From: Escherichia coli
GTDB lineage: Bacteria > Pseudomonadota > Gammaproteobacteria > Enterobacterales > Enterobacteriaceae
Assembly (NCBI RefSeq): GCF_016026235.1
Contig: NZ_CP065613.1
Length of the DNA: 64,000 nucleotides
Direction: 5' to 3' (one strand)
The notes under the pieces are model-generated. The model saw only the letters and a list, made by a program, of their open reading frames with translations, did no database searches and was not told the DNA's origin. The stretch's first letter is position 1, and each line of letters starts with the position of its first letter. Position numbers and translations under genes: made by a program. This document shows positions 50,126 to 51,147 of the stretch, piece by piece.

Positions 50126-50893
50126 GTGACATATTCGATTGGCATTGATTCCGGCTCAACCGCCACCAAAGGGATCTTACTGGCTGACGGCGTGATTACG
50201 CGCCGTTTCCTCGTTCCAACACCCTTTCGCCCGGCAACAGCAATTACTGAAGCCTGGGAAACTCTGTGCGAAGGGTTAGAAACAACGCCGTTTCTGACGC
50301 TCACCGGCTACGGACGGCAACTGGTGGATTTTGCCGATAAACAGGTGACGGAAATCTCCTGTCACGGGCTGGGCGCACGGTTTCTTGCGCCAGCAACGCG
50401 CGGGGTAATCGACATCGGTGGTCAGGACAGCAAAGTGATTCAGCTTGATGATGACGGTAACCTGTGCGATTTCCTGATGAATGACAAATGCGCGGCGGGC
50501 ACCGGGCGTTTCCTGGAGGTGATCTCGCGCACGCTTGGCACCAGCGTCGAGCAACTCGACAGCATTACCGAAAATGTCATACCGCACGCCATCACGAGTA
50601 TGTGCACAGTGTTTGCTGAATCAGAAGTGATCAGCCTGCGCTCTGCGGGCGTAGCGCCAGAAGCGATTCTCGCCGGAGTGATTAACGCGATGGCGCGGCG
50701 GAGCGCCAATTTCATTGCTCGTCTCTCCTGTGAAGCGCCGATTCTGTTTACTGGTGGCGTTAGCCACTGTCAAAGGTTTACCCACATGCTGGAAAGCCAT
50801 CTGGGAATGCCGGTACAAACTCACCCTGATGCGCAATTCGCTGGTGCAATTGGCGCGGCGGTGATCGGTCAGCGGCAGAGAAAACGCGCATGA
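50126..50893 (+). CDS. yjiL: BadF/BadG/BcrA/BcrD-type ATPase (dehydratase activator-like) YjiL
   Basis: about 255 aa from GTG (MTYSIGIDSGSTATKG actin-like ATPase motif). Confidence 0.85.
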   Translation: MTYSIGIDSGSTATKGILLADGVITRRFLVPTPFRPATAITEAWETLCEGLETTPFLTLTGYGRQLVDFADKQVTEISCHGLGARFLAPATRGVIDIGGQDSKVIQLDDDGNLCDFLMNDKCAAGTGRFLEVISRTLGTSVEQLDSITENVIPHAITSMCTVFAESEVISLRSAGVAPEAILAGVINAMARRSANFIARLSCEAPILFTGGVSHCQRFTHMLESHLGMPVQTHPDAQFAGAIGAAVIGQRQRKRA

Positions 50894-51147
50894 AAGAGTA
50901 TCTGTTTTTATTTCACTCCACGGTCGGCGTCATACAAACCCGCAAGGCGTTGCAGGCAGCTGGTATGACTTTTCGCGTCAGCGATATTCCCCGTGATTTA
51001 CGCGGCGGCTGCGGGTTATGCATTTGGCTGACCTGTCCGCCTGGCGAGGAAATTCAATGGGTGATCCCTGGGCATACGGAATCAGTTTATTGTCAGCAGG
51101 ATGGTGGCTGGCGCTGCATTGCACATTACGGGATTTCTCCGCGTTAA
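50890..51147 (+). CDS. hypothetical 85-aa protein, translationally coupled to yjiL
   Basis: ATG overlaps the yjiL stop (ATGA); cysteine-containing [15 protein letters not shown] segment; not a gene I recognise from K-12 annotation. Confidence 0.4.

Follow-up and report, generated by a model that had tools for sequence, protein, structure and literature searches.

Double-cubane cluster proteins (DCCPs), which carry an [8Fe-9S] double cubane, receive electrons from an activator that is bridged by a [4Fe-4S] cluster and hydrolyses ATP, and in vitro they reduce small molecules (PMC7317905). The DCCP of C. hydrogenoformans functions in vitro as a two-component system, and YjiM has been assigned to the "class II" DCCPs (PMC7317905). 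Proteins of the DUF3343 family (PF11823) have one highly conserved cysteine and were proposed to be selenium or sulfur chaperones, from the neighborhood of their genes with those of YedF and the Sec lyase; an activase and an HGD subunit are listed, without comment, among the partners that STRING gives for DUF3343 in Slackia (Lin et al., 2015; PMC5322559). A preprint by Haft reports that 955 of 970 double-cubane proteins of the NF040772 family occur in SelD-containing genomes, and mentions neither YedF nor DUF3343 (bioRxiv 10.1101/2022.07.06.499078). In the literature searched we found no paper that links DUF3343, the double-cubane reductase/activase pair and selenium gene clusters. The supply of selenide to SelD in bacteria is only partly understood, and the gene cassette described here may bear on this question.

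We analyzed a stretch of 64,000 nucleotides from an Escherichia coli genome (contig NZ_CP065613.1; hereafter the window), in which the DUF3343 gene ytiA overlaps the end of yjiL. We propose, with a probability of about one half, that YtiA is a carrier of sulfur or selenium based on Cys41, and that it works with YjiM and YjiL. The features of the locus, with the basis of each assignment, are listed below in window coordinates.

48965..50116, plus strand: yjiM, double-cubane-cluster [8Fe-9S] anaerobic reductase (DCCP), first gene of the cassette (NF040772, HGD-D, 6ENO, RefSeq)
50126..50893, plus strand: yjiL, ATP-dependent activator ("archerase") of the reductase (TIGR00241, BcrAD_BadFG; RefSeq coordinates by homology with L001)
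50890..50893, plus strand: ATGA, the ytiA start codon over the yjiL stop codon (direct reading; yjiL TGA at 50891-50893)
50890..51147, plus strand: ytiA coding sequence, 85 amino acids and stop (frame read; K-12 ytiA/b4715; PGAP DUF3343 / putative Se/S carrier protein)
50896..51066, plus strand: PF11823 (Se_S_carrier / DUF3343) domain, residues 3-59 (hmmscan, profile positions 1-57 of 69)
50989..51015, plus strand: conserved loop P34-R35-x5-C41-G42 between beta2 and beta3 (44-sequence alignment; AlphaFold2 model)
51010..51012, plus strand: Cys41 codon TGC, proposed S/Se attachment site (sequence; 44-sequence alignment A3)
51148..51211, no strand: 64-nt spacer to yjiK and 3' limit of the cassette (no site resembling a terminator or promoter found)

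ytiA is a genuine protein-coding gene

The ytiA frame comprises 85 codons and a stop, TAA at 51145-51147, and its window neighbors are yjiN, yjiM, yjiL and yjiK, the last with its GTG start at 51212. The initial annotation had the coordinates, the length of the frame, its ATGA overlap and its end ahead of yjiK right, and its translation is identical to the one read here. It erred in describing the frame as unannotated-looking and in giving no named K-12 gene at this position: K-12 MG1655 (NC_000913.3) carries ytiA (b4715, YP_009518833.1) at 4563668-4563925, between yjiL and yjiK. A megablast search with window positions 50600-51400 found a match in 5385 of 5426 complete E. coli genomes, and RefSeq/PGAP names the ORF in all 20 of the records listed, which were sampled across the matching genomes. 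The 17 listed records that contain the whole query have it as "ytiA: DUF3343 domain-containing protein" or "ytiA: putative Se/S carrier protein"; the three partial matches give the same products, with the gene name absent. Both the gene and its family are therefore already known, and the value of ytiA lies in the functional hypothesis and not in the gene call, which the K-12 reference and RefSeq already hold. The window strain is not K-12: 5 of the 85 residues of its YtiA differ from the K-12 protein, and strain FDAARGOS_943 has an identical YtiA to that of the window. Searches of the literature found no work on E. coli ytiA or b4715, the name ytiA retrieving the B. subtilis and Yersinia genes so called (an L31 paralogue), and the literature searched yielded no experimental work on YtiA or on other members of DUF3343.

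A frame of this kind could also be a chance ORF or a decaying remnant without function. On the side of that reading, E. coli ytiA has a weak Shine-Dalgarno sequence (AGAGAAA), some assemblies have truncated variants and no published ytiA expression data were found in the literature searched. Against it stand the family match (PF11823, E = 5e-14 by hmmscan, with a score of 52 bits where the cut-off is 25) and the pattern of substitution: among the alleles of the window, K-12, O103:H2 and O157:H7, dN/dS of ytiA is about 0.1 (0.05-0.13 over all pairs), and the window differs from the three divergent alleles by 10-11.5 synonymous and 4-5.5 non-synonymous changes. The same alleles give 0.04-0.12 for yjiM and 0.17-0.23 for yjiL. 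ytiA is under purifying selection.

The frame is also maintained across genera. GTDB representative genomes were scanned with a DCCP alignment built from the loci L006 and L008 together with the 6ENO alignment, which gave 80 loci, 19 of them gammaproteobacterial and 61 from Firmicutes; a listing of YjiM homologues held only enterobacterial sequences of at least 86% identity and was unsuited for diversity. Every one of the 19 gammaproteobacterial loci, which come from genera that include Escherichia, Citrobacter, Klebsiella, Kosakonia, Trabulsiella, Cedecea, Superficieibacter, Hafnia, Morganella and Aeromonas, has a DUF3343 ORF directly behind the activase gene. In each of the 18 loci that are not cut short by a contig end, the ytiA-type frame is intact and encodes 78-102 amino acids; the start position is conserved, and the median pN across genera is 0.36 against a pS of 0.71. 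These conservation data effectively refute the chance-ORF reading, which we consider exceedingly improbable. The initial annotation had taken the frame for a real gene and had named cross-species conservation, synonymous against nonsynonymous substitution and a DUF3343-type profile as ways to judge it; the 18 full-length orthologues from Enterobacterales to Aeromonas, the dN/dS values and the PF11823 match all agree with that view. An Rfam scan of positions 48500-52500 returned no RNA family, and a promoter and terminator scan between yjiL, ytiA and yjiK returned no such site.

Between E. coli lineages the stretch from 48965 to 52072 of the window is unusually divergent. Over positions 50600-51400, identity to the window is only 90-95% in 3288 of the 5385 matching genomes, and dS against K-12 is 0.15 in yjiL, peaks at 0.23 in ytiA and is 0.05 in yjiK. 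This peak over yjiL and ytiA as compared with yjiK, together with the 90-95% identity class, may reflect allelic lineages of old standing or recombination within the stretch. Two further observations concern the region around mdtM. FDAARGOS_943, the RefSeq record that matches the window most closely, has mdtM annotated as frameshifted and a disrupted IS1 upstream (L001:678-2929, corresponding to window ~46287-47528); the window itself has an open mdtM frame (46287-47528). K-12 has an annotated gene of 11 codons, ytiE (b4823), just upstream of mdtM (L002:8693-8728), and its counterpart region in the window is about 46100-46290.

The yjiM-yjiL-ytiA cassette

The two genes ahead of ytiA encode a double-cubane reductase and its activator. 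YjiM scores 531.6 bits with NCBIfam NF040772 (cut-off 350), matches Pfam HGD-D with E = 6.5e-122 and aligns to the solved DCCP structure 6ENO with E = 7.7e-75; YjiL scores 358.8 bits with the acyl-CoA dehydratase activase model TIGR00241 (cut-off 125.4) and matches Pfam BcrAD_BadFG with E = 7e-75. The order DCCP-activase-DUF3343 is the same in all 19 gammaproteobacterial loci (Enterobacterales, Hafnia, Morganella, Aeromonas), and in every one of them the DUF3343 gene overlaps the activase gene at the stop and start codons: by 4 nt (ATGA or GTGA) in 15, as TAATG in three and by 11 nt in one. This overlap, found in 19 of 19 loci, fits translational coupling and is a conserved feature and not an accident of one strain. 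ytiA is probably translationally coupled to yjiL, as the initial annotation had it.

A single-sequence HMMER search for YtiA homologues reached 45 representatives. Two metagenomic members that are 38-39% identical to YtiA (P0139 and P0142) lie in triplets of HGD-D (383 aa), BcrAD_BadFG and Se_S_carrier genes with unrelated flanks. The YjiM proteins of these two loci are 73-81% identical to the window protein, and the difference between the two ranges indicates that YtiA is retained but evolves much faster than its partners. Apparent Rosetta-stone fusions among the homologues were rejected: P0129, P0130, P0148 and P0136 are frameshifted YjiL-YtiA read-throughs, and the long hits P0144 and P0154 are repeats.

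In O157:H7 the gene for the type III secretion effector EspX6 is inserted after the DUF3343 gene and ahead of the yjiK homologue (L003:5291-8064; window ~51100-51212). espX6 thus parts ytiA from yjiK but not from yjiL, and the yjiM-yjiL-DUF3343 block is otherwise intact. Similarity to the window breaks at about 51100, inside the 3' end of ytiA, and leaves an 88-residue YtiA with another C-terminal tail (...HYDAEASTRQ); the SdiA-regulated gene downstream is a divergent 843-bp version. The constant order in 19 loci, the metagenomic triplets and the O157:H7 arrangement bear out the association with the yjiM/yjiL pair first noted from the window. ytiA closes a cassette of three genes, yjiM-yjiL-ytiA, and travels with yjiM and yjiL and not with yjiK.

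Family, conserved cysteine and predicted fold of YtiA

YtiA is a small single-domain protein with one highly conserved cysteine, as is typical of DUF3343 proteins, which have about 70-100 residues, and a precomputed PF11823 match is present in all listed YtiA homologues except two short fragments. In an alignment of 44 family members that reaches down to 12% identity (A3), the only invariant positions are F8, C41 and G42, and conservation reaches at least 90% at P34 and R35. The E. coli protein has five cysteines in its 85 residues (C41, C44, C49, C68 and C76), which could suggest that they hold a metal or an Fe-S cluster and that the protein carries electrons to YjiL; a PDB sequence search with YtiA also gave weak matches to ferredoxin-type CxxC segments, the best with E = 0.054. 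The search returned nothing significant, these matches included, and Cys41 is the only invariant cysteine in the alignment: the other four are lost in close relatives such as Aeromonas (CGLAI) and Morganella (CGLGI). We therefore regard a metal or Fe-S carrier as very unlikely. No solved structure of a DUF3343 member was detectable by the PDB sequence search.

An AlphaFold2 model built on the family alignment has a pLDDT of 92 and a pTM of 0.83, and comprises beta1 (residues 2-8), alpha1 (11-23), beta2 (28-32), a loop (33-42), beta3 (43-49), alpha2 (53-57), beta4 (63-70) and beta5 (73-79). The predicted fold is ferredoxin-like. Cys41 is placed by the model at the end of the exposed PRxxxxxCG loop, residues 33-42, whose pLDDT of 88 is the lowest of the core; the loop is probably flexible. 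A Foldseek search against the PDB returned marginal matches only, the best to PII/GlnK with E = 0.016 and a TM-score of about 0.5.

These matches, and the position of the conserved loop between beta2 and beta3, as in the T-loop of PII, raise the alternative that YtiA is a PII-like structural or regulatory adaptor without chalcogen chemistry, whose loop would plug into YjiL or YjiM and so control ATP hydrolysis, electron transfer or complex formation. Overlapping stop and start codons are frequent companions of stoichiometric complexes, and the conserved overlap with yjiL supports a putative complex of YtiA with YjiL or YjiM. We consider such an adaptor improbable.

A distinct DUF3343 subfamily has Cys-Cys-Gly in place of xCG, together with a conserved C-terminal ...RDRYC or RDKYC (L068:2732-2992, minus strand; L084:466-804, minus strand; L072:272-541, plus strand). 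In L068 and L084 it adjoins a longer, more divergent double-cubane paralogue of about 430-450 residues.

Selenium genes, the proposed role of YtiA and known systems

Among the 61 YjiM-like loci of Firmicutes, a DUF3343 gene lies within 6 kb in nine and is absent from that distance in 52; a second HMM iteration over the 80 loci found no further members. In 15 of the 61, selD, yedF, a TIGR01977 cysteine-desulfurase/SclA-like gene or yqeC is present within 6 kb (SelD in 7, YedF in 10, the cysteine-desulfurase/SclA-like protein in 10 and YqeC in 4). These identities were confirmed with curated NCBIfam and Pfam models, SelD by TIGR00476 (402 bits against a cut-off of 125), YedF by TIGR03527 (237 bits against 110), YqeC by TIGR03172 and LysR_Sec_metab by NF040786. 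The presence of selD in 7 of 61 loci, which are not phylogenetically independent, is a strong enrichment, since a gene with one copy per genome should turn up in well under 1% of randomly placed windows of 13 kb. Reductase and activase genes of the YjiM type lie inside canonical selenium clusters in at least five different gene orders. The arrangements of loci with a DUF3343 gene include the following, in the coordinates of each locus.

L033 (Clostridium intestinale), 6001-11150: DCCP-activase-SelD-YedF-DUF3343-YqeC-MobA-like
L080, 3991-7959: YedF-CysDes-DUF3343-DCCP-activase
L075 and L083 (L075:2864-7152): DUF3343-CysDes-YedF-activase-DCCP
L089, 776-7092: DCCP-activase-LysR_Se-YedF-SelD-CysDes-DUF3343
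L068, 1938-5617: CysDes-DCCP paralogue-DUF3343-activase
L084: activase-DCCP-DUF3343

The YjiM homologue of the Clostridium intestinale locus (68% identity) is among the closest relatives outside the gammaproteobacteria. Directly upstream of this DCCP gene (L033:4985-5848) lies a gene for an FAD_binding_5/CO_deh_flav_C subunit of a molybdenum hydroxylase, which with the downstream yqeC and MobA-like genes forms the context of selenium-dependent molybdenum hydroxylases. The clustering in Firmicutes fits the co-occurrence with SelD reported by Haft (bioRxiv 10.1101/2022.07.06.499078). The more remote DUF3343 genes P0155 and P0156 overlap TusA-domain (YedF-type) genes, and P0153 follows a cysteine-desulfurase-like gene; these contexts match those described by Lin et al., 2015 (PMC5322559). 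No selenium gene was found within 6 kb of any of the 19 gammaproteobacterial YjiM loci, and the sulfur and selenium trafficking neighborhood to which PF11823 owes its name (YedF/TusA, Sec lyase/cysteine desulfurase, SelD) is not found at the window locus. A selenocysteine (in-frame TGA) variant of DUF3343 was not seen in the loci.

The uneven distribution of DUF3343 bears on how YtiA could serve the reductase. That YtiA is an obligate third subunit of double-cubane reductases was rejected: a DUF3343 gene accompanies the DCCP/activase pair at every gammaproteobacterial locus (19 of 19), but no more than 9 of the 61 Firmicutes loci have one within 6 kb, and YtiA is no universal DCCP component, since the reference DCCP of C. 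hydrogenoformans works as a two-component system (PMC7317905). One alternative is that YtiA is a maturation or repair factor, which would act on the cofactor and not on a substrate: it would supply YjiM with the ninth sulfide (or a selenide), the one that bridges its two [4Fe-4S] cubanes. A single invariant loop cysteine would suit persulfide delivery, YtiA is strictly co-inherited with YjiM and YjiL in gammaproteobacteria, and a selenium-bridged cluster has been raised as a formal possibility to explain the DCCP/SelD co-occurrence (Haft preprint; bioRxiv 10.1101/2022.07.06.499078). We nevertheless consider it unlikely, given that 52 Firmicutes loci have a YjiM-like protein with no DUF3343 gene nearby and that the remote DUF3343 genes lie beside TusA, YedF or desulfurase genes with no DCCP. 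In the original work on the C. hydrogenoformans enzyme, moreover, the [8Fe-9S] cluster reportedly assembled on production in a heterologous host. Gene neighborhood alone cannot distinguish between a carrier, a cluster-maturation factor and a regulator.

The reading of YtiA as a carrier, to which we give roughly even odds, is supported by the PF11823 match, the dN/dS values, the linkage to yjiM and yjiL, the Firmicutes gene orders, the clustering with selenium genes and the conserved Cys41 loop. It agrees with the initial annotation, which had suggested a small accessory subunit, possibly like a sulfur/selenium carrier. Cys41 of YtiA would bear the sulfur or selenium atom, in the form of a persulfide or selenosulfide, and YtiA would give it to, or take it from, the double-cubane [8Fe-9S] reductase YjiM, to which the ATPase YjiL would supply low-potential electrons; together the three proteins would bring about the reductive mobilization of sulfide or selenide. 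The physical partnership of YtiA with YjiM and YjiL, the loading of Cys41 with a chalcogen, and the direction and chemistry of the transfer are what we infer from this evidence.

A further-reaching proposal, which we put forward tentatively and hold to be rather doubtful, is that YjiM, YjiL and YtiA form an ATP-driven, very low-potential reductase system that mobilizes selenium (or sulfur). YtiA would present a Cys41-bound chalcogen, or elemental or organic selenium, which the double cubane would reduce to selenide for SelD, and a selenium species would be the physiological substrate of double-cubane reductases. The reduction of elemental selenium to selenide is a very low-potential reaction and would justify the coupling to ATP. 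Such a role would explain the almost complete co-occurrence of DCCPs and SelD, the position within operons of selD, yedF, the Sec lyase gene and yqeC in Firmicutes, and the fixed DUF3343 cistron of enterobacteria. If true, it would give the double-cubane enzymes a physiological substrate. E. coli holds a minimal, three-gene version of the system in a genetically tractable host, where it can be tested whether the cassette feeds into selenium or sulfur metabolism.

Of the described proteins, the closest to the window protein is K-12 YtiA (b4715) itself: it is the same gene, of the same family (PF11823) and with the same single conserved cysteine (PMC5322559), and the window gene is a divergent E. 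coli allele (dS 0.23) that shows no difference in kind. The context here is YjiM and YjiL, as opposed to the YedF and Sec lyase context behind the name of the family. YtiA resembles the TusA/SirA/YedF proteins (PF01206) in being small, with a single conserved cysteine, and in lying beside desulfurase and selenium genes in other bacteria, where the coding frames of DUF3343 and TusA-domain genes often overlap; by this analogy YtiA may plausibly work as a persulfide relay in the manner of these proteins. Membership in PF01206 was rejected, PF11823 being the sole family found at E values up to 1. The cysteine of YtiA lies in the beta2-beta3 loop (PRDLRGGCG), as compared with the CPxP motif at the N-terminus of helix 1 in TusA, and the predicted fold, which has a different topology and is of a generic ferredoxin-like type, does not resemble that of TusA. 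PII/GlnK, CutA and other small ferredoxin-like proteins share with the YtiA model the beta-alpha-beta-beta-alpha-beta fold and a functional loop between beta2 and beta3. YjiM and YjiL are homologous to the two components of the C. hydrogenoformans system, DCCP and DCCP-R (PDB ID: 6ENO; Jeoung and Dobbek). That system is described as having two components, with no DUF3343 partner mentioned (PMC7317905), whereas the E. coli version has ytiA as a third cistron; a DUF3343 gene is fixed to the DCCP/activase pair only in the gammaproteobacteria and in a minority of Firmicutes loci.
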